A stretch of 64,000 nucleotides of DNA from assembly GCA_036253495.1 (NCBI GenBank), contig GCA_036253495.1_4125.1; one strand, written 5' to 3'. Source of the DNA: a phage. The notes under the pieces were generated by a model. The model did not search any database and was not told where the DNA came from. It was given only the letters and a program-made list of their open reading frames with translations. Shown here one piece after another: positions 3,001-16,877 of this stretch. The position numbers were made by a program, and so were the translations under genes. How positions within the stretch are numbered: position 1 is the stretch's first letter; each line of letters opens with the position of its first letter.

Positions 3001-6000
3001 TTGAAAGTTCATTTAATTGAACATCACTAACTGGGGTTTCATTATCATAATAATGTTGGAAATTAGACACCAAAGTTTCAAATGATGGTAATGTCCCAGC
3101 TTCTAGGATGATAAATCCAGGAGCTTGTAAACGTCCAGACCATGAACCAGTGATATATCCATACAATTTAATCAATTCTTGAACTGCACCATAGGTTGGT
3201 TCATAGATATAATCACCGAAAATAGTCTGATCATCAAAAATAACAGCATGTTCATAAGAACTGATACTTAAACGAATAAGTGCCATGCGTTTATTTGATT
3301 CTTCAGTAGTTCTTACCGTGAATATGTTACCAATACGAGATGTTTCAATCTCAAATTGACGTATACCTTGGTTTGAATCATCTAATAATGACCAAACACC
3401 ACCACTATTTTGTGCAATTGACTGAACTGAACCAAAATCTGTACCAAATTTAGCATTAATTGCTGATGGGGTACAAGAAATGAATTCACCAGTACTCAAT
3501 TGTTGTTGACTCCAGATTAAAAAGTCTTTTGCAATTGTATTCCAGTCCTGTTGGATACCAGATTCATCAACTTCTTCAAAAATCCAACCATGTTGCTTTA
3601 GATACTCACCATAACCACAAATAAATGTGTAAACTTCCTGGAAGGTATTCATCAAAGTTCCGTAAGGAATGGATGCATCATTTTTCCACTCATTATAATG
3701 AACAACATTACGATTATCAACTTTCAAAGATACTTTATGACCGTTTTTAACAGGCAATTTATAATTGAATGTTGCAGAGACTAAATCATAACCATCAATT
3801 TGGTAAGCACTACCAGTCCAAGTAATTTTAATTGCACTCATTTGCTCATTTCTAATATTATTAGAACGAACTAAACCGATAGATTGGTTTTCTTGTGAAA
3901 TTAGACCAGTTGCTTCTGATGTAAATGTTAATTGATCAGCTTTAGTGAATCCACCTAGTTTATGACCCACATTAATATGAGAAGAACGAACAATTTCACC
4001 GTACTTAGTTGTAATATTTTTGTTTTGATACATCAAATAATCACTAACAATCATTTGATAACCAATAACGCGAGTACTATTCTCACCATGTACGATTGTA
4101 TCACTATTAAAGTTCAAACGTAAACGAGTATCACCATATAAAAACTGTGGTTCATTACCAGATACAGTTTTTAATGTATTATTTCGGGTATCCCAGAAAT
4201 AGTTTGTGAACTGTGCAGGTTTAGCTTTGAATAACATCAATAATTCATCATATGCAAACATTGCTGTGTTCATATAAGTGAATTCCATATCACCCATATC
4301 ACCATAAGTCCACGGTTCAGCACGATGATTTAGACTACCATATACAAGACCTAAAACTTCAGGAGCAATGTACTCAATGACGCAAATATCAACACCAGAT
4401 GCTGTCTGCTTGCCTGTTTCAGTGATCTTAAATGGTTGTGTACCAAAACGTTTGTACTTGTCATATTGACCTTTACGTGCACCAAACAAGATAGTACCCG
4501 TTGAGCTATCACCTTTCTCGTTACCAACGTCCCATAACCCACTAGGAACCATGTTACCTTGTTCGTTGATAACTAATGCCTCATATACATAAACAACATC
4601 ACCATCACGTTCGCCAACTTGAACTGCGGTAGGTTCATATTCCTGGTTCCACCAAACTGGACGTTGGGAGAAACCAAACATTTCCCACGGATGGGTTGCT
4701 GGGCGATATGTACCAAATTGGTCAGTGTAGATTGCTCGCCATGATCCACGTGCTTCTATTTGTGTTTGTTGACCATTAACCATATAATGTGTTCCAGTAT
4801 AGTTCCAAGTCATCCAGTTATTTGGATCATAATCATGTGAACTGTTACTGATACCATTGGTTGCGATGAAATTAATATAACCACGTAGTAGTAAGTTCTT
4901 TTTCTCTTCGTCATTATACTCTGTATCTCTGAAATACGGAGTTGGGAAAAGATCAGAAGCATCTAGCTTAGGTTGGTAATCTTCATCTTTGAAAATAACA
5001 TCAATACTATTGAAAATTCTATTTTCTAACTCATATATAACGTCATCCATTTTATCAACACCGTTTATTACACGGTATGCTTTAGTGATTGCACCTGTAT
5101 GACTGATGTTATAACAGCTTTGCTTACTACCAGCATTCAAAAATGTTGCTTTTTCTGGAACGTGTGCTTTCAAAATACCCAAAAACTGTGGAGTTGGTGG
5201 TACAAACGCACGAATGAAGCCAGAAGTACTTGCTACGTTATCATAATAGAATGGGAAAGTATTATCATGACCCATATTAATAATTGTTAGAATTTCATCA
5301 ACAATATTAGAAGCATTATTAGCTAAGAAGTTTGCTGGGTTCTCATTGTACAAACGGATCATTTGTGTATTGAACTTGTTTACGAAACGGAAATATTCGG
5401 ATTGCATAAACAATACAGATTCAAATAGGTCAATATCTTCATTTGCAGAATGTGCCATTAACGGTAGCATTGATGCTTCGTTTTGAATAATCTTAGTACC
5501 AACGGAGTTATCCACTAAACCTTTAGACAAACGATCTTCGTAGTCGTTGAAATCATCAACGGAACCACTGGTGATATTCTTTTGAATGATATCTTTAAAA
5601 TGTAATGTAAAATTACTTTGGTTGATATAAAGAATATTATCGTTGTATGGGTTATTTTGTAAATTGATTGGGATTTCATATGCACCCAACTCTTTATTTG
5701 GTACTTCAGTACTGCTGTATGTTCTAATTTGAATCACTGATTCATCTTTAAGAGCTACATCTTCACCTAAAGTGATGCTTTGAACCTTGTTATTATATAC
5801 ATGACGTGTATAATCGGTTACATCAACTCCATCAACTTGAATTTCAATGATTTCGGTACTCTTACCATCAATAATTTTCTGGGCTAATTCAAATGTGCGA
5901 TTGAAACGTTCACTTTGAATACCTTCACCACTAATTACATGCCAATCCATATAGGTTTGACGTTCTTCTTTGTAATATTGATAGGTACGATCCACTTCAG

Positions 6001-7486
6001 TAACATATGCATACATACCTTCTAATGGATTTTTAAAGTTTTCCATTTCGAATACAGTATTGAATACACGATACATATCAGTGTGTTCTATTTGTGGCGT
6101 TTGTTTAACGAATTGCTTTGAATCTTCCTTAGAACGAACCCAATCGGTCTTAAGGTGTAGTTCATTATCTTTACCAACTACATTATAGTAGTACAATCCA
6201 GAAATTTCAGTTTCAACACCCAAATGATCATATGTATAACGAACACTTTGTAGGAAGTTTTCGTACATATAGTAATTATAATTACCTAGTTCGATATTAT
6301 AACCATATACTTTATCAGTGCCGTAATTATAGTTGATTTTAAAACCAAATAGGGATGAACCATCAAAATTACTTGATGGATAAATTGTAGAATCATTTAA
6401 TTTAAAACCATCACGGTCATATAATTGGAATTGTGGGAATACGTTTACACCAGATTTTGTTTGTGCTCTAATCCAGTTAACACCATTCCAGTACATGGAT
6501 GTATTTTTATATACATTACCATCACGCACCAAAATAACATCACCATTATGTGGCTCACCACTTGGGCGGTCATCAGTTTCTTCATCTGGGTCCAATGCTA
6601 GACCATATGTGCGAGAACCATCTTGCATTTTCTTAATAAAAACTTTATAAATGCGGTTGTTTTCACCAACGTTACCTATACTAGTGAAAAGAATACGCAT
6701 ACCATCTTGTGGAATAATCCCGTCAATACGAATACCATCATTTACGTCTTTTTGGACGATATCTTCTGGTTTAATTGTATCAGAGAAAAGATCCACAACA
6801 CCACGGAAATGTGTCCCGTAGTTAATTAATTCGATATTTTTATTGTACTCGATGATTGGTGCTTGTGCACGAATAAAACGAGTATCTTGTGTCATGTCAG
6901 CAGTTAGTACTGTTCCATCTTCTAGTGTTTGACCAATAGTATACCAAAAGTTCTGTAGGGACCATGTGTTTCCGTTATCAGCACCACGTTCCATAACAAT
7001 AAAGTCAGGAGTTGTGATACCATAACTATTTTTACTATCCCACAAATAGGAACTGTAGTTGGTCATTTTGTTTGGGTTAATTGGTGGTGTCCAAGAATAG
7101 AACTTACCAGAAAATAGACGGCTCTCGTTTGAAGTTAACGTGCCGTAGTGTTCCATGTAGCCAACCAAATCATCATAAAATTGAAGCGAACGAATGCTTG
7201 TGTCATCATTACGAGACACATATGCTGTTGATAATTGATATAGCTGACGTTCAACGGTTGCTTCGTCAAGGAAAATCTTAGCAGATGCAGCAGGAGAACC
7301 CATATCACCAATATATCCATCAACGATTTCATTATCCGCTGGATTGAACCATTGTTGAATTACATCATCACTAACCTTTTGAATGTCTTCTAAGCCTTGC
7401 ATCCATTCAGGTAATCTTTTAATGAAAAGCTTCTGTTGTACTGCTTCTGCCGTTTTAGTTGGTAGAAACTTAAAATTATTAGTCAT
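1..7486 (-). CDS. Very large virion structural protein, 3' end beyond window start (>2,495 codons in window); probable baseplate/tail-fibre module component
   Basis: Minus-strand frame has no stop from 7486 down to position 1 (the ORF track shows only short spurious ORFs here). ATG at 7486-7484 preceded by GGAG. N-terminus reads MTNNFKFLPTKTAEAVQQKLFIKRLPEWMQG. Lies after the gp6-like gene in the baseplate block. Function not recognised. Confidence 0.6.
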   Translation of the reverse strand, partial: MTNNFKFLPTKTAEAVQQKLFIKRLPEWMQGLEDIQKVSDDVIQQWFNPADNEIVDGYIGDMGSPAASAKIFLDEATVERQLYQLSTAYVSRNDDTSIRSLQFYDDLVGYMEHYGTLTSNESRLFSGKFYSWTPPINPNKMTNYSSYLWDSKNSYGITTPDFIVMERGADNGNTWSLQNFWYTIGQTLEDGTVLTADMTQDTRFIRAQAPIIEYNKNIELINYGTHFRGVVDLFSDTIKPEDIVQKDVNDGIRIDGIIPQDGMRILFTSIGNVGENNRIYKVFIKKMQDGSRTYGLALDPDEETDDRPSGEPHNGDVILVRDGNVYKNTSMYWNGVNWIRAQTKSGVNVFPQFQLYDRDGFKLNDSTIYPSSNFDGSSLFGFKINYNYGTDKVYGYNIELGNYNYYMYENFLQSVRYTYDHLGVETEISGLYYYNVVGKDNELHLKTDWVRSKEDSKQFVKQTPQIEHTDMYRVFNTVFEMENFKNPLEGMYAYVTEVDRTYQYYKEERQTYMDWHVISGEGIQSERFNRTFELAQKIIDGKSTEIIEIQVDGVDVTDYTRHVYNNKVQSITLGEDVALKDESVIQIRTYSSTEVPNKELGAYEIPINLQNNPYNDNILYINQSNFTLHFKDIIQKNITSGSVDDFNDYEDRLSKGLVDNSVGTKIIQNEASMLPLMAHSANEDIDLFESVLFMQSEYFRFVNKFNTQMIRLYNENPANFLANNASNIVDEILTIINMGHDNTFPFYYDNVASTSGFIRAFVPPTPQFLGILKAHVPEKATFLNAGSKQSCYNISHTGAITKAYRVINGVDKMDDVIYELENRIFNSIDVIFKDEDYQPKLDASDLFPTPYFRDTEYNDEEKKNLLLRGYINFIATNGISNSSHDYDPNNWMTWNYTGTHYMVNGQQTQIEARGSWRAIYTDQFGTYRPATHPWEMFGFSQRPVWWNQEYEPTAVQVGERDGDVVYVYEALVINEQGNMVPSGLWDVGNEKGDSSTGTILFGARKGQYDKYKRFGTQPFKITETGKQTASGVDICVIEYIAPEVLGLVYGSLNHRAEPWTYGDMGDMEFTYMNTAMFAYDELLMLFKAKPAQFTNYFWDTRNNTLKTVSGNEPQFLYGDTRLRLNFNSDTIVHGENSTRVIGYQMIVSDYLMYQNKNITTKYGEIVRSSHINVGHKLGGFTKADQLTFTSEATGLISQENQSIGLVRSNNIRNEQMSAIKITWTGSAYQIDGYDLVSATFNYKLPVKNGHKVSLKVDNRNVVHYNEWKNDASIPYGTLMNTFQEVYTFICGYGEYLKQHGWIFEEVDESGIQQDWNTIAKDFLIWSQQQLSTGEFISCTPSAINAKFGTDFGSVQSIAQNSGGVWSLLDDSNQGIRQFEIETSRIGNIFTVRTTEESNKRMALIRLSISSYEHAVIFDDQTIFGDYIYEPTYGAVQELIKLYGYITGSWSGRLQAPGFIILEAGTLPSFETLVSNFQHYYDNETPVSDVQLNELSNHLIGYQSRDYLQRMITNEPGRIDFYKGFIHDKGTNQVLEKVLRVSKSYNTDEYKALQEWAFRVGSYGNIDGVKNLQFKLINNEFKQQPQMITFDRYSDKVESENEIVYYGEIGEDSRWISRPKGKFSFPMRNGRSENIQLPNIGPVTLDEIDYTTLNYETANQDRISYMNNSGKIPTSVWMFQDINNEWNVYDLVDTGITMVSITPIESEDPYAEQYCKVLLSDDIPLNDGDYYYFVDETNFMPDALRDECQYYTSGLDPKVMVVPFDTSITIDFSTVESAPRLYRYVSRFSTQQERDEYIAKKYSYSAPESTLFDRPTTYDERTNITALYLNVFDPINGVIPGVAMQDVDFISPVDPAQYSSNGELLQAWGAEKVGKVWWNTSTAFYLDYTRPIFDEDGNVDVKATNEYKRYNWGKLLPHSVIDVLEWVSSPVEPYNWEKYCAEQANKNKNNTMYLPSGIAMDENYSSSMEYDPITDTYVVRYYFWVRNTIYVPPMTTRSKSCTDIARIIQDPTQLNVPWFAPINENSFILSNMQFEVNDDTSILTISYRNDNIEVLKHDQYQLCKEGDSYDFNPDIWNSLWNSLIGQETTSTGVVNEIIYPKVETGLGSNKTWFQNVIEARRAFVESANNFYRSQNITTNSVVMNDVFNVKTLKMNPNDITFRVLSFNNELVIAPEDNRFKENDAVFVSSIGTLPSPLSSSSVYFVHIDPNGYIQLMNSPSTVGSTVTITLENRGEGQHKMIKQADFIESLGTSLDMTQYWNLADWYDTGYDSNTEYTQEVSLDDANTKNYQIGDIIRVTDSDGVWTLYIKTASRNNIYWKAIGRENSTVELNSMLYSGYNVYNDDGSLNSHEVNVRNALALLKNTFNLYQSNIVFDMVKYVHTEQSVVDWVFKTSYIYIVGLEQSLVQNYSNDNLINQIVEYFEEVKPYRTKIRSQIEQKTSDDDLINGISNDLDPDGYILVDGVWVKTEKDIWDLEYAQFNDVTQRWEKIGSLPS

Positions 7487-7532
7487 GTATAGGACTCCAT
7501 AAATTCGTTCATTCATTTGATTTATTTATGCT

Positions 7533-7558
7533 ATAAAAAAGGCGACCCGAAGGCCGCC
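7533..7558 (-). terminator. Intrinsic terminator downstream of gp6-like gene
   Basis: GC-rich hairpin ggcggcc-UUCG-ggtcgcc (minus-strand sense, one mismatch) followed by U-run (plus-strand A-run 7535-7540). Confidence 0.55.
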
Positions 7559-7567
7559 ACGATTTTA

Positions 7568-10500
7568 TTAAAAACCAATATTAATATTACTTTTAGCTAG
7601 AGAGTTAACGATTTGTACGTTATCAACGGTAGCAGTACTAATGAATATTTGGTCAGGTCTAGAAGGTATCTCAAACAATGAACCAAACTTAGAATTAGGG
7701 TTTTGAGCTACAATTACAACAGTACTAATGTGTCTACCAAGTTGGGTATGAAGGTACGTACACAAATCAGTATAATAGAAACTTTCACCAAAATCCCAGT
7801 TCTCAACTGCAAAGTACTGGTTAGTTAATGAAACAATATTTTGACGAATTTCATCATCACTCATTGTACTATTAGGTAATTTCACTACTTTGAAATCAGC
7901 TTTATAATCCGGTGCTGCACTATTACCAAATAAAGGCAAATATTCAGCACTGTGCCATATCAAACTATCACTAATTACAGTTTTCTTCTCAACATCCTTG
8001 AAGATATCTTGTAATTCAACCGATGTTGGTGGTTTAGGCATATCACCTTTAGCACCATTCTTCAACCAAATATCAACTTCTGTCTTATATGAGTTTGTTA
8101 AAACATACATATCAATTAAGTTGGTTCTGCTTGGGTCGATTCGATTATCATCTGGTGCATAATGCTTCCAGTGGAAGTTAATAGACGTTCTAGCATTAGT
8201 TTTTATAGTAAGTTCAGATGTAATATCCTTATAACCATAATAATTAAGCTTTTTATTAGCGTCAACACTTGTACCCATGTTTTTAATACAACGATAGAAA
8301 GCAGTTTCTGGAGTAGCCGCACTTGGGTCTGTAACTTCAGTCATGTTCTGAATTAGAACACCCAAACGGTCATTGTTATTACCAACTGTTTGTTCGATGA
8401 AGTAATATTGCCCTTCGTATTGGAATGCAATAATAAAACCAGTACCTTTACTATATAGTTCACTTAGTGTAGTTGAGCGAATTTCATTATTACGAATGAA
8501 TTCTTGTCTCTTGTACGCATTAGTTTCCGCTAATGCCTGATCCATTGTGTAATTCCATGTTGAATCCATGATAGTGAATGATGAATTTGGTAATGTCAAT
8601 GAAGAAATAGTAAAATCTTCATTTTGTTGAAATACCAATATACCACCATATTTTCTAGAATCTTCACCTGTCCAATCAGGAACAATAGATTGGAATTGGT
8701 TAGGATTTAATGGAATACCATTACTATCCATACTTTCTGATGTAATTACAACTCTTGAACCATCCAAATAACCATTTTCTTGTTTTATTGTATCCAGAAT
8801 CTGGAAATCAATGTTATTGGTTAGACCCACGTTACTAGTACTGGTAGAGTTTGATGAAAGAATCTCAATTTTATCACTTTGCACTGAACCAGAACTAATA
8901 TCAGTGATTTTCTTAGAGCTTACAAAGTAAAAACGAACTTTTTCTCCACCAACAAATACATACTCAACACCATTGGAATCAAATTCCCATGTTTCAGCAG
9001 TGTATTGGATGTTAACCATCACCTGTACTAACGAACCATTGTATGTTATAGTATCACTAGTGGTTGTCATTTCCAAAGGAACCCATGTAGTGGATACAAT
9101 ATCATAAATTAGAATAAAGTTAGTTTTCTTATCTAACATTGCAGCAATATTTTGTACTTCAACTGTGTTGAAACGAGTTCTATATGGGCTAATGTACTCC
9201 TGAATCTGCATAGAGGAAGAAATAGGCGTACTTAGAACATAAAAACCGTTAGGTAACACGCTAACAATACTAGCCCATACGATATTATTTGAACTACTAC
9301 CGAATTTAATTAATGTACCAACTTTATAATCACCATAAATTGTACCAGTTGCCCCAATAATACGACCATATGTATTAGTTGCATAGCTTGAACTATATGA
9401 TGGAACCCAGTTTTGTTGTAATTCAACACGTACTGTATTCTGCGGATATGCTTGATACTTCTGAATAACAGCATTTTCACCAATTAATGGTTGTATATCA
9501 TCGATAACAATACTAGAATTAGATTTAGTACTTGGTAAATTAACAGATTTATTGTATTTGGTGACATTTTTGTACATTGCACCATCATCACTAAACACAT
9601 CAGTGTTTTGATACTTACCAGTTGGGTCATTTATGTCAATAAATCGTGATTGTCCACTGTAAATTCGGTTAATCGCTTTAGATTTCAGTACTGCATTACC
9701 TTGACTCAACGGAGCAATGTTATAATCTTCACCATTCACAAAACGGTTTTGTGTATAATACATTTGTGGTGCACGAGCTTTAATTTGTTCAAGGGTTTCT
9801 GCACTTTGTGCACGGTCTGATTCAAATTGTAAACTAAATTTAATATCTAATGTACTATTCTCATAGTTAGATTGTGATTTAGTTCTGTAAATGTACTTAA
9901 CACTTTTGTTTTGAATGTCAGCAGTTTTGATGTTGTATGTTTCGCCATTACTAACACGATACCAAACGCGATATGTACCACGTGGAACAACACCACTACG
10001 TGAATCAGGGAACTTAATACTGATTTGGTCACGATCACGAGTAGTTACCGCATAAATTGTTTTAAGTTGGCGTGTTACAGTGTTATATGCGATACTTTCC
10101 ATCGATGGAACCTTAGTCCATTTAGTACGAACTATACCATCTTCAGTGATTTCCTGTACCCATACGTCAGTTTCGTTAATATTGTCTACGTTTATATCCT
10201 GAATACGGTTTTCTTGTCTTACATCGTATTGGAAATCTTGATATTGTAATGTTCCTTGAATAAAATAAACAAAGAATCCAGTATTAGGTGAACTAAAACC
10301 ATTACCATCATTCTGATACACAATATATTTCTGTTCTTGTGGCTCAGGGTGTCTTTCATCAACACCAATAACGTTAATATCTGGGTTTACGACTTCAAAT
10401 GTCATCGATTCACCATTTACTGTTGCGGTGAATGGTAAATTAGGTGCAGACATAGGTAAAGTGTTCATTCTATACAAATGACGAGACACACCATTAATAT

Positions 10501-11032
10501 CTAAACGTTTTACTGGATTACCAAACTGGTTAGTACTGACAAATGCACTATTCATCACCAGAATAAAGTTTTCATACCAGTTAGAGTCCATTGGGTCATT
10601 CCAACGGATAATTTTATCTTTAAGAGATTCGTTATAGCTGTTGCGAACGTCTTGGTTAGTTTTAATTTCAGTTAGTTTTGCTGTTGCTCGCCCTGGATAT
10701 GCACGACGAGGTGAATATGAGATCATTTTAGCTAATTTAAGTACAGATGCACGACGACTAGCAGTATCTAGGAAGTTTTCACGCGTGTTTAAATCCATAC
10801 GAAATGCTAAGTTTTGTCCAAGCATCGCAATGGTATCTAAAATGAAGATAAACTGGTCATTCTCAATCCAGTCATTGAATGAATCAGGATATGTTTGACG
10901 CAAATAATCAATCATACTTTGACGTATAGTATCGAAGTCATAAGCCGTCAGATTTATTTTATAGAAACTTTCATATACCTGGGTCCAGTCTTCCCCCGCG
11001 TATAAATTAGATTGTCTTTTTTGTTGTGACAT
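7568..11032 (-). CDS. Baseplate wedge protein, gp6-like (1154 aa)
   Basis: ORF with ATG and AAGGA RBS. N-terminal region (…LDYDF…, …TASRRASVLKLAKMISYSP…) resembles T4 gp6/baseplate J family from memory. Sits next to gp25-like gene as in canonical contractile-tail baseplate order. Confidence 0.55.
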   Translation of the reverse strand: MSQQKRQSNLYAGEDWTQVYESFYKINLTAYDFDTIRQSMIDYLRQTYPDSFNDWIENDQFIFILDTIAMLGQNLAFRMDLNTRENFLDTASRRASVLKLAKMISYSPRRAYPGRATAKLTEIKTNQDVRNSYNESLKDKIIRWNDPMDSNWYENFILVMNSAFVSTNQFGNPVKRLDINGVSRHLYRMNTLPMSAPNLPFTATVNGESMTFEVVNPDINVIGVDERHPEPQEQKYIVYQNDGNGFSSPNTGFFVYFIQGTLQYQDFQYDVRQENRIQDINVDNINETDVWVQEITEDGIVRTKWTKVPSMESIAYNTVTRQLKTIYAVTTRDRDQISIKFPDSRSGVVPRGTYRVWYRVSNGETYNIKTADIQNKSVKYIYRTKSQSNYENSTLDIKFSLQFESDRAQSAETLEQIKARAPQMYYTQNRFVNGEDYNIAPLSQGNAVLKSKAINRIYSGQSRFIDINDPTGKYQNTDVFSDDGAMYKNVTKYNKSVNLPSTKSNSSIVIDDIQPLIGENAVIQKYQAYPQNTVRVELQQNWVPSYSSSYATNTYGRIIGATGTIYGDYKVGTLIKFGSSSNNIVWASIVSVLPNGFYVLSTPISSSMQIQEYISPYRTRFNTVEVQNIAAMLDKKTNFILIYDIVSTTWVPLEMTTTSDTITYNGSLVQVMVNIQYTAETWEFDSNGVEYVFVGGEKVRFYFVSSKKITDISSGSVQSDKIEILSSNSTSTSNVGLTNNIDFQILDTIKQENGYLDGSRVVITSESMDSNGIPLNPNQFQSIVPDWTGEDSRKYGGILVFQQNEDFTISSLTLPNSSFTIMDSTWNYTMDQALAETNAYKRQEFIRNNEIRSTTLSELYSKGTGFIIAFQYEGQYYFIEQTVGNNNDRLGVLIQNMTEVTDPSAATPETAFYRCIKNMGTSVDANKKLNYYGYKDITSELTIKTNARTSINFHWKHYAPDDNRIDPSRTNLIDMYVLTNSYKTEVDIWLKNGAKGDMPKPPTSVELQDIFKDVEKKTVISDSLIWHSAEYLPLFGNSAAPDYKADFKVVKLPNSTMSDDEIRQNIVSLTNQYFAVENWDFGESFYYTDLCTYLHTQLGRHISTVVIVAQNPNSKFGSLFEIPSRPDQIFISTATVDNVQIVNSLAKSNINIGF

Positions 11033-11095
11033 TTATTAATCCTTTAAGCCAATAAAGTACTGGGTCAGTACTGAAATTTTATATAGAAATATTTA

Positions 11096-11124
11096 TCCAA
11101 AAGAAAAGCACTCCGAAGAGTGCT
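11096..11124 (-). terminator. Intrinsic terminator downstream of gp25-like gene
   Basis: Perfect 7-bp stem agcactc/gagtgct with C(UUCG)G tetraloop on minus strand, followed by U-run. Confidence 0.65.
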
Positions 11125-11131
11125 TAGTAAA

Positions 11132-11527
11132 TTATAATTTAGATGTTGTGAATGTCGCCATTCTATTATTACTTCTGGCATCAAACACTATAGTTAGTTG
11201 TTCTAATTTATCAAGCATTACATACTCTAAAATTATATCCAAACGATAACCATATTCAACATTACTAACTGTTAGATTTTTTAAATTCAAACGTGGGTCT
11301 AATGAAATAATTCTACGAGCGTCAGCTTCTAAAAGATTTTTTGTATTATAACCATCAAGTTCAAAAATCAAATCCCAAGCAATGAAACCATAATCAGCAT
11401 CAAATGCTCTTTCACCTTTCTTTGTATTGAAGTGGTTCATCAAATCCTGTCTCACCAACTCAGCATCATACAGAGTTTGTGTTTTACCCACAACAGGAGT
11501 AGAGAAACCTTTAAAAACTATTGCCAT
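11132..11527 (-). CDS. Baseplate wedge protein, gp25-like (GPW/gp25 family)
   Basis: 131 aa. Motif KGERAFDADYGFIAWDLIFE matches T4 gp25 KGSRPFDPEFGCDLSDQLFE. GAGGA RBS. Confidence 0.7.
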   Translation of the reverse strand: MAIVFKGFSTPVVGKTQTLYDAELVRQDLMNHFNTKKGERAFDADYGFIAWDLIFELDGYNTKNLLEADARRIISLDPRLNLKNLTVSNVEYGYRLDIILEYVMLDKLEQLTIVFDARSNNRMATFTTSKL

Positions 11528-11540
11528 AGACTTTCCTCAT

Positions 11541-12029
11541 TTATACGGATTCAACAATCCTTGCCATTTTTTCAGCACGAGAAGTTGTTTGACGATACCA
11601 AGCGGAATCACGCATTTCTTTGCCAGCGGTTTTATAATCACCACGACCCAATGCTGCCATTGCTTTCTTAAAGTTCAATACACGAGATTTACCCATTTGG
11701 AATACCATCATCCAAAGTACACGTTGTACTTGAATAGGTGCAGTCATTCCGAATTGATCGTAAATCTCTTTTGCTTCTCTGTATGCATTTAGGGAATCTT
11801 TTTGAAGTAATGCTTCAGCTTCAGCTTCCGTTAGCCCTGCACTGAAATTTTCACCTTTTAGTACTAAGTGACCATATCCAATGGTATCTAGTCCTAGGCT
11901 ATCTTTATAAACTCTGAATTTACCATTCTTGAAATAACCTAATTTAGTTTGGAAAGCAATAGTACCTTCAAACTCTTTAATTTCTTTCAAATACTGTGCA
12001 TCATCAGGTTTAATTTCCCATTTACTCAT
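11541..12029 (-). CDS. T4-type lysozyme (GH24 endolysin-like)
   Basis: 162 aa. KDSLGLDTIGYGH, MVFQMG and SAWYRQTTSRAEKMARIV align with T4 lysozyme KDTEGYYTIGIGH, MVFQMG, SRWYNQTPNRAKRVITTF. Confidence 0.85.
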   Translation of the reverse strand: MSKWEIKPDDAQYLKEIKEFEGTIAFQTKLGYFKNGKFRVYKDSLGLDTIGYGHLVLKGENFSAGLTEAEAEALLQKDSLNAYREAKEIYDQFGMTAPIQVQRVLWMMVFQMGKSRVLNFKKAMAALGRGDYKTAGKEMRDSAWYRQTTSRAEKMARIVESV

Positions 12030-12044
12030 ATACTTCTCCTATAA

Positions 12045-12067
12045 TATTTATTGGATAAAATATTTAT
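12045..12067 (-). promoter_or_regulatory. Putative T4-type late promoter(s) for lysozyme gene
   Basis: Two ATAAATA cores on minus strand 15-40 nt upstream of the lysozyme ATG. Confidence 0.3.
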
Positions 12068-14727
12068 TGACATGCCTCAATTCTACGTGCCATTAACTCT
12101 GCACGACGAGTTGTTTGACGATACCAAGCGGAACTACGTATATGAGCAGCAGCACCACGATAATCACCTTTAGCTAAACATCCAAGCATACCCTTGAATT
12201 TTTGAACTTTGTATTTGCCCATTTGGAATACCATTTGACATAGTACTTGTTGAGCAATAACAGGTGTTTTTAAATCCCAGGCCGCATATATTGATTTGGC
12301 ATCATTAATTGCTTGCGTACTGTCTCGTACTAATATTGCTTCAGCTTCTGCTTCAGTTATACCACCAGAAAAATCTTCACCTCCGACAATAAGGTGTCCA
12401 TATCCAATTGTAGGGAATCCACGGCTATCAATATAACGCCAGAATTTTCCATTTCTGAAATATCCAAGTGCTGTTTGATATTGGATAGTACCTTCGTGTT
12501 CTTTAAGTTCGGATATAAATTGGGAATCACCCGGAGCAACTTTCCATCCAACGGCAGTTTTATCAACATTACCTACATTATAATTTTGTTCAACTTTTGG
12601 AGCGGTTCCTGCATTTCGAGGCTTACGTTCTCTACGACGAGGAACATGACGAGAACCACGTTGTGAATAACCAGTTCCAATAGTTCGTATGCGAGTTGAT
12701 ATTACCAATTCATCACTATCAGCAGATGGTCTGACCACATCTTTAGGGTTATTTTGTGTTGATGGTTGACCACCAATTAATGTTTTATTCGCCGCAGCAG
12801 AACCCTGACCAGTTACAGTTGTGTAGAATAATCCAGGATCAACTGAACCACTAAAACCATAGATATTAGATGAGCGAACTCTTATTTCAAATCGTAATAT
12901 ACCATTAGCAGTTCCTATTACTTGTCCTTTTTCAACAACATCTTTATTGAATAGGTCAGAAGTTAAACCATAGAAAACAGATTTATAACCAGATTTATGC
13001 TCAACAATAAGAGCATCACCACTGATACCAACAATCCCACCATCTGGTGCAACCACACTTCCACGGGCTTGAATTTCCCATCCACTACTATCACGCTTGG
13101 TTCCATTCTCGGTCGTTACACCCTTACCCCAATAACCATTCTGGCGAATAGTACCGCTACATGGCATAAGCATATGCAAACCTTCAAACGTCTGCGAATA
13201 ACCAGTCATTCCTGGTTCAGCCGCCATTAAATCTTGTGTTTGAACTTCACTTGTCTCTGGGGCATAATTTACAAATTGAATTGCTTCTGTTTCTTGTTGC
13301 TCTGCAAGTGTAGGTTGAACATCATTTGCTGGTTGTGGCTCAACTGGAGATGTTGTACTACCTTGACCACCACCACTTATACCAGGATCAACCCTATCAC
13401 CGTGGTTTTCTGCATCTTTCCAGTTAGCAATCATATGAATGTGGTCATTAAGACCCACTGATGGAGTTTTGAAGTCAGGAGCCATGAATGCAGCACTACC
13501 ACTATTACCTGCACTATCAACCGTTAGGTTTTGACCACCACCACTAATGTTAACGGATGAACCACCAATAACGTTTGCTGAGGATGAACCTTTAATAGAT
13601 GCAGTTGACCCAGCCGTAATATCAGTACTGCTACCACTTTGAAGACGTAATGAAGCACCAGTAACCAAACGAAGATCAGCACCAGAATTAATTACAACCT
13701 GACCATTGACCTTAGCATCCAAATTACCGACCAATTCCAGTTTGGTATTTCCACCAACACGAGTATTGAAGTCTTGCCCACTTTCAATATTATAAGAACG
13801 ACCTGCAACCATGTTAATATCTTGACCTGCACGAATGTTTATGTTTTTATCACAGTGCATTTCAATATCACCATCGCCAGTGAATTTAATACGAGCCGTA
13901 CCATCACGGTTAATTAATAAAACATTACCAGTGGCTTCAGAAATAAGAAGTTGTGCACCACTACGTGTTTTAATAACAATACCTTCATTCTTTCTGGAAC
14001 CAACACGAGTGTCATTAACTGGGTTGTTAAATTGTGTGTCTTGGTATCCATCAGGGTCTTGATCCCATGTTGGCTTGGTCAATTCTTCTTCTGTATATCC
14101 ATCATCAAGAATAAAACTATTACCACGAGGTGTACTCATACCATATACAGTACTGGTTGTTTGACGAGTACTGCTGCGGTTTGCAACACCTGCTTCATCA
14201 TCGTATAATAAGTTTTGTTTTTTCAATCCTTCAACAGCAGGAACGTTAATATATTTGTCTTGCATGTCAGTTGTGATTGTGTTACGATCATAATCAGTTA
14301 CTGGTAATGGCATATCAGTACCATTGTAATTGGTATCCGCAGTTGCCATTCCAGGAACCATTGTATTCATACGTTGGTCATAAACACATCCAATCCAGTA
14401 AGCTTGGAATGTACGTGCTTGTGCAAAAATAACAACAACAGTACATCCCACATCTGGTGGAACGGCCCAAAAACCATAACCCTTTGGATATTGTCCATAA
14501 CTATCTGCACTCGGTATTCCTGGAGTTTTGCCAGCAAACGGAGCCATATAAGAAGCTTCAATCCATGAATCTTTAGAGTTTTTATCACTTTGTGAACCTT
14601 GTATCCATACTTTTAGCTTACCAGATTTCGTAGGATCACGGTTATCCATAACGGTTGCTAATTGTGGATAAGATGGGTCAAAACGACCCAACTGTTCCTT
14701 TGCATACTTTTTACTTGTATCTGCCAT
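12064..14727 (-). CDS. Baseplate central spike, gp5-like, with C-terminal GH24 lysozyme domain and a degenerate M23-like domain
   Basis: 887 aa. N-terminal OB/spike-like region, Gly/Ser-rich beta-helix-like repeats (residues ~290-400), M23/LytM-like segment (…IVEHKSGYKSVFYGLT…GQVIGTANGILRFEIR) lacking the HxH motif, and C-terminal ~160 aa paralogous to the adjacent lysozyme (TIGYGH, MVFQMG, SAWYRQTTRRAELMARRI). Confidence 0.75.
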   Translation of the reverse strand: MADTSKKYAKEQLGRFDPSYPQLATVMDNRDPTKSGKLKVWIQGSQSDKNSKDSWIEASYMAPFAGKTPGIPSADSYGQYPKGYGFWAVPPDVGCTVVVIFAQARTFQAYWIGCVYDQRMNTMVPGMATADTNYNGTDMPLPVTDYDRNTITTDMQDKYINVPAVEGLKKQNLLYDDEAGVANRSSTRQTTSTVYGMSTPRGNSFILDDGYTEEELTKPTWDQDPDGYQDTQFNNPVNDTRVGSRKNEGIVIKTRSGAQLLISEATGNVLLINRDGTARIKFTGDGDIEMHCDKNINIRAGQDINMVAGRSYNIESGQDFNTRVGGNTKLELVGNLDAKVNGQVVINSGADLRLVTGASLRLQSGSSTDITAGSTASIKGSSSANVIGGSSVNISGGGQNLTVDSAGNSGSAAFMAPDFKTPSVGLNDHIHMIANWKDAENHGDRVDPGISGGGQGSTTSPVEPQPANDVQPTLAEQQETEAIQFVNYAPETSEVQTQDLMAAEPGMTGYSQTFEGLHMLMPCSGTIRQNGYWGKGVTTENGTKRDSSGWEIQARGSVVAPDGGIVGISGDALIVEHKSGYKSVFYGLTSDLFNKDVVEKGQVIGTANGILRFEIRVRSSNIYGFSGSVDPGLFYTTVTGQGSAAANKTLIGGQPSTQNNPKDVVRPSADSDELVISTRIRTIGTGYSQRGSRHVPRRRERKPRNAGTAPKVEQNYNVGNVDKTAVGWKVAPGDSQFISELKEHEGTIQYQTALGYFRNGKFWRYIDSRGFPTIGYGHLIVGGEDFSGGITEAEAEAILVRDSTQAINDAKSIYAAWDLKTPVIAQQVLCQMVFQMGKYKVQKFKGMLGCLAKGDYRGAAAHIRSSAWYRQTTRRAELMARRIEACQ

Positions 14728-16877
14728 TACTCACCACCTGGGTTTATTATACTATCTTTACGTTTAAGTGCACGAGCGACAATAGCACCTTGAATTTGTT
14801 GCGTGAAAGTACCGTTTGTACCAAAATCATGAATTATTTTGTTTACGCGATAGATTGTTTCGTTGAATGTGGTTGGCGTGGTTATGTCCAAAATACCAGT
14901 ATTATCATTAATAGAAACAACTGGTTGTAATTTCAATAACAAATATGCTTCAGTTGAAATATAATTTGCATATTTGAAATCCTCTGGATTTATATATAAT
15001 GCTTCACCATTTACCAACATATCCAAATATTGAAGATATGCATGATCACCCCACCCCAACCAATATGGGTCACCAATTACACGCATATCCAACTTACACA
15101 TAAATGGACGGTTATAATAGTTGTCGCGTATTTTACGTCTGTCCATTTCATACGTACTACTATTATCGTTATCAGATGCCGATAAAGTTGTATGGTTGTT
15201 TGTAGCTTCAGTTGGTATAGTGAATATTTCACCCCTACGATCACCAATTCCATCAGCACCCATGTCATTTTCTTCATATACACTACGATAATCTTCAATG
15301 TATTCAGGAAGGACATGAACTTTGTAATTCATATAAGCATCTTGTTCTTCTTGATTACCCACACCCATCGCATTTTTTAATTGCTCATCTACTTCATTTA
15401 GTAATGCAGTTTGAGCTTGTGTTATAATTTCCCCTTTACTTCGTGCTTTTCTTATATCACTAGTCTTATTCCACGCATCTAATGGGTTACTATATTGAAC
15501 CCCTTGTATGGTTAATTCCTGTGATGCATGTGTACCACTTCTGTTACCTTGGTCTTGTATTGGACCTGGGTTACGTGTTGTAGCTACATAAAATTGCTGA
15601 TCGAAATTCATATCCAAATCTAATATTTCATTATTCAATCCACTGAATTGATAATTGTATATTTTCATTCTTAACTTTTCTTCATTATCTCTAGGGTCAA
15701 GATAACGTTCAGAGTTTTCTAGGAACGTTTCGAAGTTAAAGTTTTCTGGTTGTAAATCCGATTCATGAACAACATCACCAATTCGAAAACGAACAATATT
15801 AAAAATAACTTTATATACTGATGTATTACGTAAATTATCAAAACCAACATATTGTTTAAGTGGGATTATATTAACAAATTGGCGAACGCTAGTACTATCA
15901 CCTTCACGAACAGTACATGCATCAATAACATCATCAATTATTCTTGATATTGGTGTACTTGGATTCCATGAAAAGTTTTTAGAACCCTGTGAACCATTTT
16001 TTGTTGAAGTTACTTCAGTCATTTGTTTAGAATCATAGTTTATGAACATATCAGCAAGTTCAGGTGCAACTTTAAATTCAAAAAATTTACCTTCTGCCAG
16101 TTCTGGAAATTTCATACACAAATAACCATACTGTTGTTCTGACATTTCATTTAACTTATCTTCCAAATCATAACAAAATGCTCCAAATTGTGCAGCAGTA
16201 CATGAGAATGTTTCTTTTAATGTCCATTCTACGTTATCAACCAATGCAGCACGATTGTGTACTAAGTTAATGGTATATAACATTGTACTACCAGTTGCAC
16301 TGGCACTTGCTTTAACGTTGTTAATCTTCACTGACCAACGTTTTGTAGTGTTTGGTATGACTTGAGGAACACCATCTTCATTATAACCAATGAACTTTAG
16401 TTCAAGGATTAATGGTAAATCCATAAATTTATGATAACGAAGTTTATTACTTAATGATATCAACTCATCGTAAAAACTCATACTATTGTTTTCTGACATA
16501 CTTATTGAAGCAGTATTAAATGTATAGTTTGTTGTCATACCAGGAGTTGAGGGACCAGCTTGCGTCATCTGAACATTTGTGATATTATACTTACCAGTAA
16601 CGCCACTTTCAGTGATTACATAACGTTGGACTTCAGCATCTGGATTTTCCCAGAACATCTTAAAGTCATCTTTATCTAAGGCAAACAAGGTAAAGTGCCA
16701 CGTTGCTGAATTGTATTTTAATAAAACATTTTCATTGTCAATAATAAAATCAGAAATCTTTTTATCGTCATAAATTCTATCAGTATGTGTGCTTTGAATT
16801 GGTTTTGATTGTACGTTACTTACTTTAGCACCATATTTGTTACTCTGACTAGGGTCTAGTCCAATTTTAGTATCCAT
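14727..16877 (-). CDS. Baseplate hub-like structural protein (gp27/gpD position), hypothetical
   Basis: 716-aa ORF with GGAG RBS directly upstream of the spike gene. Assignment by position only. Confidence 0.35.
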   Translation of the reverse strand: MDTKIGLDPSQSNKYGAKVSNVQSKPIQSTHTDRIYDDKKISDFIIDNENVLLKYNSATWHFTLFALDKDDFKMFWENPDAEVQRYVITESGVTGKYNITNVQMTQAGPSTPGMTTNYTFNTASISMSENNSMSFYDELISLSNKLRYHKFMDLPLILELKFIGYNEDGVPQVIPNTTKRWSVKINNVKASASATGSTMLYTINLVHNRAALVDNVEWTLKETFSCTAAQFGAFCYDLEDKLNEMSEQQYGYLCMKFPELAEGKFFEFKVAPELADMFINYDSKQMTEVTSTKNGSQGSKNFSWNPSTPISRIIDDVIDACTVREGDSTSVRQFVNIIPLKQYVGFDNLRNTSVYKVIFNIVRFRIGDVVHESDLQPENFNFETFLENSERYLDPRDNEEKLRMKIYNYQFSGLNNEILDLDMNFDQQFYVATTRNPGPIQDQGNRSGTHASQELTIQGVQYSNPLDAWNKTSDIRKARSKGEIITQAQTALLNEVDEQLKNAMGVGNQEEQDAYMNYKVHVLPEYIEDYRSVYEENDMGADGIGDRRGEIFTIPTEATNNHTTLSASDNDNSSTYEMDRRKIRDNYYNRPFMCKLDMRVIGDPYWLGWGDHAYLQYLDMLVNGEALYINPEDFKYANYISTEAYLLLKLQPVVSINDNTGILDITTPTTFNETIYRVNKIIHDFGTNGTFTQQIQGAIVARALKRKDSIINPGGE

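Follow-up and report, generated by a model that had tools for sequence, protein, structure and literature searches.

The 887-aa protein examined here is interpreted as the central spike, the cell-puncturing device of the baseplate, of an Asteriusvirus/RaK2-like jumbo myophage, carrying a C-terminal extension made up of a dead LytM domain and a GH24 lysozyme, and accompanied by an old, soluble duplicate of that lysozyme. The probability of this joint reading was estimated at about 0.72. Residues 1 to ~450 would form a complete spike (OB fold, neck, VgrG-like triple beta-helix and HxH motif), from which the LytM/M23-fold domain and, after it, the GH24 muramidase would hang as C-terminal cargo on two flexible linkers.

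Locus, relatives and published descriptions

The window, a 64,000-nucleotide stretch of phage DNA (contig GCA_036253495.1_4125.1), is 99.6% identical at the nucleotide level to Escherichia phage A4, and the middle segment of the A4 spike is 100% identical to that of the window. Both the 887-aa and the 162-aa open reading frames were present as an earlier sequence-only reading had described them, and each of the strings quoted there (HKSGYKSVFYGLT, GQVIGTANG, LRFEIR, TIGYGH, MVFQMG and SAWYRQTT) was located. Coordinates of all features are listed in Table 1. The spike matched a PHROG family from end to end (887/887 positions, 1678 bits). Its orthologues in named sister phages are 58-79% identical and share the domain order, the neighbours and the adjacent small lysozyme with the window.

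Table 1. Features of the spike locus and domains of the 887-aa spike
Feature	Spike residues	Position in window	Strand	Basis
gp25-like baseplate wedge protein		11132..11527	-	Pfam GPW_gp25, 36.6 bits
Stand-alone GH24 lysozyme, 162 aa		11541..12029	-	Phage_lysozyme, 38.2 bits (cut-off 22.3)
Spike open reading frame, 887 aa	1-887	12064..14727	-	
GH24 T4-type lysozyme domain	728-887 and stop codon	12064..12546	-	Pfam, PDB
Linker 2, variable, low confidence	641-727	12547..12807	-	low pLDDT, alignments
Metal-ligand-less LytM/M23-fold domain	516-640	12808..13182	-	Pfam, profiles, AlphaFold2, Foldseek
Linker 1, Pro/Gln/Ser-rich	453-515	13183..13371	-	variable, low pLDDT
HxH motif (H429, H431), apex-like putative iron histidine cage	423-452	13372..13461	-	conservation
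VgrG-like triple beta-helix, Gly/Ser/Thr/Asn-rich	251-422	13462..13977	-	DUF2345, PDB profile
Conserved neck between OB fold and beta-helix	117-250	13978..14379	-	conservation
gp5/VgrG-type N-terminal OB-fold domain	23-116	14380..14661	-	Pfam Phage_base_V
Virion structural protein, 716 aa		14727..16877	-	PHROG 11190 'virion structural protein'

The gene order is T4-like: gp53-like, 716-aa protein, spike, lysozyme, gp25, gp6-like. The stop codon of the 716-aa gene overlaps the spike start (TAATG), and its product, for which a PDB sequence search gave no match, is a candidate hub partner of the spike. The gp25-like gene is the last one ahead of a terminator-like hairpin (11125-11106). Following mass spectrometry of virions, spike orthologues were identified in phAPEC6 (Gp241), in CBB (CBB_240) and in GAP32 (the counterpart of CBB_240), with a very low coverage of 4-10%; RaK2 gp078 was not detected. 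As expected of a central spike, the protein is thus placed in a baseplate module by its neighbours in the window and in the virion by its orthologues.

For RaK2, both the inverted order of the domains and the paralogy of the lysozymes had already been described (2013), and the central M23 match was reported for CBB (2017); publications on RaK2/CBB-type phages take this match as a possible peptidase. No mention of the loss of metal ligands, of the HxH motif or of the short PA5oct-type spike was found in the sister-phage publications. Because the gene has been annotated and discussed in the literature on RaK2-like jumbo phages, the present reading changes little: the layout is published, and novelty appears to be limited to the lost metal site. 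Recognising an HxH motif within the 887-aa spike is an addition of the present work to the published description. Further additions are the degenerate LytM character of the M23 domain, its conservation at the level of the lysozyme, the delimitation of a C-terminal extension that Callisto lacks, and the great age and restricted distribution of the duplication.

Needle module, HxH motif and linkers

The order claimed earlier for the 887-aa spike (OB fold, beta-helix, M23/LytM-fold segment, GH24 lysozyme) was recovered using Pfam and profile searches, and its departure from T4 gp5 was confirmed by HMMER comparison with the T4-type spike 9f4a_BB. The lysozyme of the query (761-879) aligned to target residues 187-327 and its beta-helix (283-389) to residues 444-550; since the matched positions are swapped, the order is inverted relative to gp5. 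The OB fold was identified by Phage_base_V (PF04717; 29.4 bits, exceeding the cut-off of 23.8). Residues 1-250 contain 52 invariant columns, with a mean identity of 60% across 17 orthologues. The neck lies where the lysozyme sits in T4 gp5, and a Pfam search of this region returned no family. In the region that follows, G, S, T and N make up 42% of the residues. DUF2345 (VgrG beta-helix) matched aa 280-321 with 28.8 bits, slightly below its cut-off of 30.7, and an orthologue profile of aa 1-470 retrieved VgrG1 beta-helices from the PDB (4uhv, E 9.4e-7) as well as other VgrG/gp5 spikes. At the sequence level, a triple beta-helix is therefore predicted C-terminal to the OB fold.

H429 and H431 are the sole invariant residues within their segment (17/17 orthologues), and probably form a histidine cage that binds iron where the helix ends. 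The motif by which spike Apex domains are diagnosed is HxH (bioRxiv 10.1101/2023.02.25.529910). Such motifs are also known within tail fibres, as simple trimer clamps, and the use of HxH as an internal clamp leaves its identity as an apex in the spike unproven. Spikes of the P2 gpV/phi92 gp138 type likewise combine an OB fold with a beta-helix, and an invariant HxH comes directly after the latter. The spike reads GLNDHIH...DPGISGGGQGS in this region and the C-terminal end of P2 gpV reads VLHTHKHPGDSGGTTGSPL, a local likeness of the form L..HxH...PGxSGG..GS without global similarity (BLAST E 0.85). The gpV chain stops 12 residues past its HxH, whereas the spike has an insert of ~14 aa and continues for 456 residues beyond the motif.

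Because the invariant HxH closes the beta-helix, the two enzyme-type domains behind it constitute a C-terminal extension. This extension, beginning after ~aa 450, is a lineage-specific add-on and is missing from the syntenic 477-aa spike of the PA5oct-like phage Callisto, which aligns to aa 1-~450 only, ends near linker 1 and lacks aa ~212-245 of the neck region. Both linkers vary in length and sequence among the 17 orthologues (linker 1: 55-110 aa, mean identity 34%; linker 2: 76-99 aa, 35%) and contain stretches with an AlphaFold2 pLDDT below 50 (aa 500-515 and aa 659-705, respectively). Linker 2 carries a semi-conserved motif, S-x-E-L-V ... I ... G-S ... P, and a basic stretch (RHVPRRRERKPR), and was not docked onto the LytM domain by AlphaFold. 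Three 48-kDa appendages at the tip seem hard to reconcile with a sharp needle if linker 1 does not fold back along the helix.

T4 gp5 (PDB 1k28) has in common with the spike an N-terminal OB fold, a GH24 lysozyme and a triple beta-helix, a baseplate operon with gp53, gp25 and gp6 homologues alongside, and a paralogous soluble lysozyme (T4 e), though encoded elsewhere in the T4 genome. The spike is not a gp5 sensu stricto, its order being OB-helix-LytM-lysozyme as opposed to OB-lysozyme-helix. Furthermore, gp5 has neither a LytM domain nor an HxH and is capped by a separate PAAR-type tip, gp5.4. 'Evolved' VgrG spikes of type VI secretion systems bear C-terminal effectors, as in V. cholerae VgrG-3 with its peptidoglycan hydrolase. 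They resemble the spike in having a VgrG-like beta-helix followed by cell-wall-degrading cargo on one chain, but differ in that the spike has no fused gp27-like module, belongs to a phage baseplate instead of a T6SS locus, and carries a dead LytM domain plus GH24 as its cargo.

The degenerate LytM domain and the two lysozymes

The central segment had been regarded as an M23-like fold that lacks the catalytic HxH. In the window's spike alone, Peptidase_M23 (aa 555-608) scored below its cut-off (20.1 bits, E 7e-4; cut-off 28.7), but PF01551 was matched by 8/8 family members with a best E of 9.4e-9. A family profile was searched against the PDB and retrieved SpoIIQ (3.4e-8) and DipM (4.7e-8), followed by LasA, TagE, zoocin A and EnvC, the latter weakly (E 0.01). 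Structure prediction, which could have refuted the claim, gave an M23 fold: AlphaFold2 with eight sequences yielded a pLDDT of 84-92 across aa ~520-630, and all top-50 Foldseek matches of the model in the PDB were M23/LytM proteins (probability 1.00). The top match was DipM (E 1.4e-6), with EnvC close (TM-score 0.65-0.68), at an identity of ~20%; catalytic M23 enzymes scored nearly as high. SpoIIQ, the top profile match, is an inactive LytM protein. DipM is itself inactive (PMC10336132).

Ligand columns were placed by alignment with DipM (H210 and D214 of LytM) and with zoocin A (HLHFE) and DipM (QLHFE) for the HxH (catalytic H291 and Zn ligand H293). The HxH columns, which in the window read I610-L-R612 (ILRFE), hold His in 0/17 orthologues, in agreement with the missing catalytic motif noted before. 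At the HxxxD positions the window has S547...E551. The H210-equivalent column is mostly S/R/N, with His only in RaK2 and P0002 (2/17), and the D214-equivalent column mostly E/I/T, with Asp in 1/17; this His and Asp never occur together, and a complete set of metal ligands was found in none of the 17 orthologues. Across the four columns the residues are S/R/H/N, E/I/T/D, I/V/S/N/K/T/G and R/Q/K/E/L/Y/I, a free variation that indicates relaxed positions and not a substituted active site. Seventeen other columns of the domain are invariant, including W550, H577 (equivalent to H260), E614, R616 and D630-P-G632. Mean pairwise identity amounts to 48.7% for the LytM domain and 49.7% for GH24, compared with 34-35% for the linkers; being as conserved as GH24 and more so than the linkers, the dead domain is under selection. 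In an exhaustive HMMER scan of 1.84 billion proteins, this LytM subtype occurred only inside spikes of the same architecture.

Having a LytM fold and incomplete metal ligands, as degenerate LytM regulators do, the domain is a degenerate LytM domain. The label 'M23 peptidase' is unfit for these spikes, and 'conserved metal-ligand-less LytM domain' describes them better. A sharper and testable annotation is that of a LytM domain in permanent linkage with a muramidase, placed behind a needle that ends in HxH. DipM, EnvC/NlpD, SpoIIQ and the PrgK LytM domain have the same fold and have lost their zinc ligands too, PrgK (pCF10 T4SS) further resembling the spike in that it joins a metal-less LytM domain and a muramidase within a machine that crosses the envelope; these are, however, cellular or plasmid proteins with demonstrated partner binding, while the present domain is part of a virion spike. 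Among phage virion proteins, phi29 gp13 and Tuc2009/TP901-1 Tal have active M23 domains, and M23 domains were found in BFVD in tape measures, hub proteins and cyanophage gp5-like proteins. An M23-fold domain within a tail-tip, hub or tape-measure protein is thus common, but those proteins are annotated, and some shown, to be catalytic endopeptidases, in contrast to the present family without HxH (17/17).

The C-terminal domain of the spike matched Phage_lysozyme (aa 765-882; 34 bits, exceeding the cut-off of 22.3) and, in the PDB, gp5 and T4 lysozyme. Similarity to the gp5 lysozyme is only ~30-35%, and the present lysozyme has an insert of ~14 aa between the catalytic Glu and Asp that gp5 lacks. 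The equivalents of catalytic Glu11, Asp20 and Thr26 are E745, D767 and T773; Glu is kept in 16/17 orthologues, Asp in 16/17 and Thr in 12/17. With this triad intact, muramidase activity is predicted. The 162-aa lysozyme carries the same Glu/Asp/Thr residues, and its gene is preceded by an AGGAG ribosome-binding site of its own. Its proposed paralogy with the spike domain was substantiated (55% identity over 158 aa, E 2e-59). The duplication is ancient, not recent: the two copies share 62% of their nucleotides and 50% at third codon positions, and those of ten phages group by type, with the stand-alone lysozymes in one orthologous clade and the spike domains in another. It is also confined to one subclade, the stand-alone copy being absent in a Vibrio phage and in the metagenomic orthologue P0006. 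LysUE1, an orthologue of the stand-alone lysozyme, was expressed, purified and found lytic (2025; PMC12805682). Virion analyses of CBB-type phages did not detect the stand-alone protein. It is probably a soluble, active, non-virion component. This paralogue is active without a LytM domain, so that activation does not strictly depend on the dead LytM domain.

Proposed working of the spike and alternatives

Upon sheath contraction, the spike would be pushed across the outer membrane, bringing three copies of the extension into the periplasm. There, the GH24 domain would cut glycan strands, letting the tube pass, while the stand-alone lysozyme would be translated separately in the same late baseplate operon. 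The gene structure, the identities and order of the domains, the lost ligands, the conservation and the age of the duplication are established by the analysis; metal binding by the HxH, periplasmic delivery and the role of the dead domain are what we infer in this scheme. The dead domain would be non-catalytic, and would most likely dock or regulate the neighbouring muramidase, either restraining it until it is delivered or placing it on the stem peptides of peptidoglycan. This is proposed by analogy with PrgK, DipM and EnvC, in which degenerate LytM domains behave as docking or regulatory modules: the metal-less LytM domain of PrgK down-regulates the adjacent muramidase (bioRxiv 10.1101/2024.02.15.580431), and DipM uses its degenerate groove to dock lytic transglycosylases and an amidase and to stimulate them (PMC10336132). 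If such a role were established, the spike would provide the first virion-borne LytM-type regulator to be described, and also a phage example of cargo behind a spike apex, which bears on the transport of enzymes across the outer membrane by contractile injection systems and on the engineering of spike-borne lysins. A bolder version, in which a viral 'LytM factor' frees the spike's own muramidase from auto-inhibition or activates host autolysins (amidases or lytic transglycosylases, like EnvC, NlpD and DipM) and the HxH apex emits three cargo chains like an 'evolved' VgrG, is improbable; if true, the phage would borrow the wall-remodelling enzymes of the cell to open the hole for its tail tube.

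The 'non-catalytic binding module' of the sequence-only reading is only one option, given that the best-characterised degenerate LytM domains regulate or dock hydrolases. Such a module, which would purely bind peptidoglycan or be structural without regulating an enzyme, is conceivable but doubtful; it would anchor the lysozyme on stem peptides or, in the course of assembly, pack on the beta-helix or baseplate. The groove of M23 enzymes accommodates stem peptides or cross-bridges, and the retained fold, the invariant groove residues W550, H577, E614 and R616 and the activity of the paralogue devoid of LytM agree with such a module; the protein-protein contacts by which EnvC, NlpD, DipM, PrgK and SpoIIQ work, instead of by binding peptidoglycan, weigh against it, and the present data fit either option. 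Action in trans, in which the domain would mimic EnvC, NlpD or DipM and activate host periplasmic amidases or lytic transglycosylases that are auto-inhibited where the spike penetrates, is very unlikely. The closest solved structures are indeed the regulators DipM and EnvC, and R616 aligns with DipM R589 and EnvC R405, a residue required for amidase activation, but the same Arg is common in catalytic M23 enzymes (HxHFxR), which come out nearly equal in the fold search, and the sequence similarity to EnvC is weak. Residual peptidase activity through non-canonical catalytic or metal residues is more remote still. In its favour are the invariance of H577, E614 and D630, the H210-equivalent His kept by RaK2 and P0002, and the Glu or Asp that some members show in the D214 position; against this stand the lack of both HxH histidines and of a complete ligand set in all members, the free variation of these columns, which is unlike that of a substituted active site, and top sequence matches to known inactive LytM proteins.

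It is also unlikely that the extension is wholly or partly cleaved during assembly and missing from the mature virion, serving as an assembly or trimerisation aid, with the stand-alone lysozyme supplying the enzymatic activity. T4 gp5 itself is processed between lysozyme and helix, some tail fibres contain intramolecular trimerisation aids, Gly-rich flexible linkers directly follow the HxH, and the low or, for RaK2, absent mass spectrometric coverage of orthologues is compatible with cleavage. A delivered extension, by contrast, accords with the non-detection of the stand-alone lysozyme in virions and with the catalytic residues of the spike GH24 domain, kept in 16/17 orthologues; as these are conserved even in lineages without the stand-alone copy, the fused enzyme itself appears to be used.

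Central spike and its domain order

The 887-aa protein is a central spike, a structural identification to which we assign a probability of about 0.9. Pfam matches were obtained to an OB fold (aa 23-116), a VgrG-type beta-helix repeat (aa 280-321) and a GH24 lysozyme (aa 765-882), together with a sub-threshold M23 match (aa 555-608). A profile of aa 1-470 matched VgrG1 beta-helices (E 9.4e-7; best match against PDB, 4uhv). A resemblance of GLNEHIH to GLEHHHHHH of VgrG1 4uhv was ignored, the latter being the His-tag of the construct. The lysozyme and helix matches are reversed relative to the solved T4-type spike, bearing out the atypical domain order proposed in the sequence-only reading, and the motifs quoted there were all found in the sequences. 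The GH24 domain looks catalytically competent, the Glu and the Asp each being present in 16 of 17 orthologues.

In the PA5oct-like phage Callisto, the spike encoded at the syntenic position comprises only 477 aa (locus L011, 3914-5347) and aligns to aa 1 to ~450 of the window spike. At this ~450 boundary lies an HxH motif, H429/H431, which is invariant in every one of the 17 orthologues (variants HIH, HKH, HRH, HVH and HTH) and provides the sole invariant residues of aa 423-452. In the P2 literature, HxH has been described as the only universally conserved spike feature, marking the iron-loaded Apex (bioRxiv 10.1101/2023.02.25.529910). H429/H431 is only a possible Apex motif, as 456 residues follow it and HxH also clamps fibres internally. 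The end of P2 gpV reads VLHTHKHPGDSGGTTGSPL and the window GLNDHIH...DPGISGGGQGS; BLAST of P2 gpV against aa 1-470 gave no significant global similarity, the resemblance being local (HxH/PGxSGG). Because the Callisto protein ends where the invariant HxH is found, aa 1 to ~450 are read as a complete spike. The remainder (aa ~453-887) is read as a lineage-specific cargo extension consisting of a linker, a dead LytM domain, a second linker and GH24, placed behind the beta-helix as in effector-bearing VgrGs. The 477-aa PA5oct-type spike of Callisto carries neither the HxH motif nor an enzymatic domain. Separate virion-associated peptidoglycan hydrolases, gp173 and gp245, were reported in the PA5oct paper.

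The feature is real and had been read correctly, and in essentials it is already known. The CBB paper (2017) described an N-terminal gp5 OB domain, a C-terminal lysozyme and the difference from T4 gp5, as well as a possible M23 domain in the centre, shared by other Rak2-like phages. PHROG 13211 matches the spike end to end, and M23-fold domains are commonplace in phage hubs, tape measures and lysins. No paper describing such degenerate LytM domains from phage tails was found in a literature search; the ligand loss, the HxH in mid-chain and the difference from the short spike of PA5oct type seem to be unpublished, if incremental. The dead LytM domain holds a small chance of more interesting biology.

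Degenerate LytM domain

The single spike sequence provided marginal M23 evidence (20-22 bits), and a word-indexed protein search with the M23-like segment and an 11-orthologue alignment as queries gave no match. The segment is present in 73 phage records. When 1.84 billion proteins were scanned exhaustively with HMMER, distant metagenomic orthologues with 30-52% identity to the window segment were added, and the exhaustive representative library contained at least eight relatives, including a Vibrio phage orthologue. One candidate (P0009, 169 aa, E 9e-4) was discarded as a low-complexity protein. PF01551 was matched by all eight representatives (best E 9.4e-9), and the family profile matched SpoIIQ (3.4e-8), DipM (4.7e-8), LasA, TagE/Csd, zoocin A and EnvC in PDB. 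Single-sequence AlphaFold prediction of the segment reached a pLDDT of 34.5, and no conclusion rests on that model; with eight sequences, a core of aa ~520-630 was predicted at pLDDT 84-92. Following Foldseek comparison with PDB, the best 50 matches were all M23/LytM folds, with the DipM LytM domain on top and EnvC at TM-scores of 0.65-0.68. Family matches, profile-PDB matches and the modelled core with its Foldseek matches agree on the M23 fold suspected from the sequence, and structure prediction did not return the different fold that would have spoken against it.

Ligand columns, numbered by LytM, were mapped via alignments with zoocin A (HLHFE), SpoIIQ and DipM; direct comparison with LytM was too weak to place HxxxD (hhalign probability 8%, local hmmsearch 5 bits). 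The window protein has S547/E551 where HxxxD is expected and I610/R612 where HxH is expected. Neither HxH column holds His in any of the 17 orthologues, which confirms the loss of the catalytic HxH noted earlier. The H210-equivalent column is S/R/N, with His in two of 17 (RaK2 and the orthologue P0002), and the D214-equivalent column is E/I/T, with Asp in one of 17. A complete metal-ligand set was found in none of the 17, and H577, equivalent to LytM H260, is invariant in them. A substituted active site is argued against, since the former ligand positions vary freely. Mean pairwise identity is 48.7% for the LytM domain versus 49.7% for the lysozyme; the flanking linkers show 34-35% identity, lengths of 55-110 aa and 76-99 aa, and low pLDDT. 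On these comparisons, purifying selection maintains aa 516-640 as a degenerate LytM domain.

A conserved P-A-N-D-V lies inside the variable linker 1, and linker 2 carries S-x-E-L-V...I...G-S...P and, after it, a basic stretch (RHVPRRRERKPR). These motifs, all modelled at low confidence by AlphaFold, could act as strands for docking or as sites of processing.

Lysozyme duplication and proposed mechanism

The product of the next gene shares 55% identity (E 2e-59) with the last 160 residues of the spike; the neighbouring lysozyme is a tandem paralogue, as had been suggested. Both copies carry an unusual insert of ~14 aa between the catalytic Glu and Asp; at the nucleotide level the two window copies are 62% identical, and 50% at third codon positions. 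The stand-alone lysozymes of ten phages formed one clade and the spike domains another. The hosts of the ten phages compared for gene order were Escherichia, Cronobacter, Pectobacterium, Serratia, Salmonella, Erwinia, Xanthomonas and, for RaK2, Klebsiella. In nine of the ten the stand-alone gene lies directly 3′ of the spike; the exception is Klebsiella phage RaK2, with four small ORFs, two of them on the opposite strand, between spike and small lysozyme (locus L002, 4890-6383). Vibrio phage 2.275.O and the metagenomic orthologue P0006 lack the stand-alone gene, and gp25 directly follows the spike there. Given the clade split, the divergence and this absence, the duplication is an old 3′-terminal tandem one, confined to one subclade.

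LysUE1, an orthologue that likewise begins with MSKWEIK, is lytic to EDTA-permeabilised cells as a purified protein (PMC12805682). CBB_240 and CBB_238 were found in CBB virions and CBB_239 was not. No peptide positions were listed in the supplementary proteomics data.

Contraction would carry the C-terminal extension into the periplasm, a step modelled on the demonstrated translocation of the P2 spike; the murein would then be opened by GH24, and docking or regulation would fall to the dead LytM domain. Two analogues bear on this last step: in PrgK, a T4SS protein, the LytM domain lacks metal and down-regulates the muramidase next to it (bioRxiv 10.1101/2024.02.15.580431), and DipM uses its degenerate groove to bind lytic transglycosylases and an amidase and to stimulate them (PMC10336132). 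An obligatory activator is unlikely, because the paralogue is active alone; a restraining, positioning or stem-peptide-binding role is more plausible. That the dead LytM domain acts specifically as a cis-regulator is a tentative proposal, somewhat more doubtful than probable.

Genome identity and baseplate operon

Nucleotide identity places the window in a jumbo myophage of E. coli of the Asteriusvirus type: over bases 11000-15000 it shares 99.6% identity with Escherichia phage A4 and ~77% with PBECO4, 121Q and phAPEC6. The spike lies in a tightly packed baseplate operon.

Positions of the baseplate operon genes and of associated features in the window
Feature	Position	Strand	Remark
252-aa virion protein		-	baseplate operon
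gp53-like protein		-	baseplate operon
716-aa virion protein	14727-16877	-	no Pfam family
TAATG overlap	14725-14729	-	716-aa ORF stop/spike start
887-aa spike	12064-14727	-	baseplate operon
Linker 1 motif	~13324-13332		aa 466-468
Linker 2 motif	~12640-12717		aa 671-696
Intergenic region	12030-12063	-	spike-lysozyme
162-aa lysozyme	11541-12029	-	baseplate operon
gp25-like protein	11132-11527	-	baseplate operon
Terminator-like hairpin	11106-11125	-	T-rich tail; after gp25-like gene
gp6-like wedge protein	7568-11032	-	baseplate operon
Terminator-like hairpin	7541-7558	-	T-rich tail; after gp6-like gene
Giant ORF	1-7516	-	start at 7516

The TAATG overlap suggests translational coupling of the 716-aa gene and the spike. 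A PDB sequence search with the 716-aa protein gave no match; it is a candidate gp27-like hub partner of the spike. The small lysozyme gene comes with an AGGAG site of its own, located 34 nt past the spike stop. The gp25-like and gp6-like genes are the only ones followed by terminator-like hairpins; spike, small lysozyme and gp25-like genes are probably co-transcribed, as no such hairpin was found between them. Matches to sigma-70-type promoters were not above chance (48 found, 53 expected). The T4 late-promoter consensus is TATAAATA, and the spike-lysozyme intergenic region contains AATAAATA, with one mismatch, which may be a late promoter inside the operon that serves the small lysozyme.

The giant ORF (>2,500 aa) lies directly downstream of the gp6-like gene and runs past the left window edge; in phAPEC6, a 382-kDa virion protein, gp245, is encoded just after the baseplate wedge gene gp244. 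In 121Q, an HNH endonuclease ORF, noted as group I intron-associated, is located between the gp25-like and gp6-like genes (locus L010, 5763-6527); neither this insertion nor the four-ORF insertion of RaK2 is present in the window. G+C content and GC skew are 0.398 and -0.17 at 12001-14000, compared with flanking values of about 0.35 for G+C and -0.05 to -0.10 for the skew, and this shift coincides with the Gly/Ser/Ala-rich spike gene.
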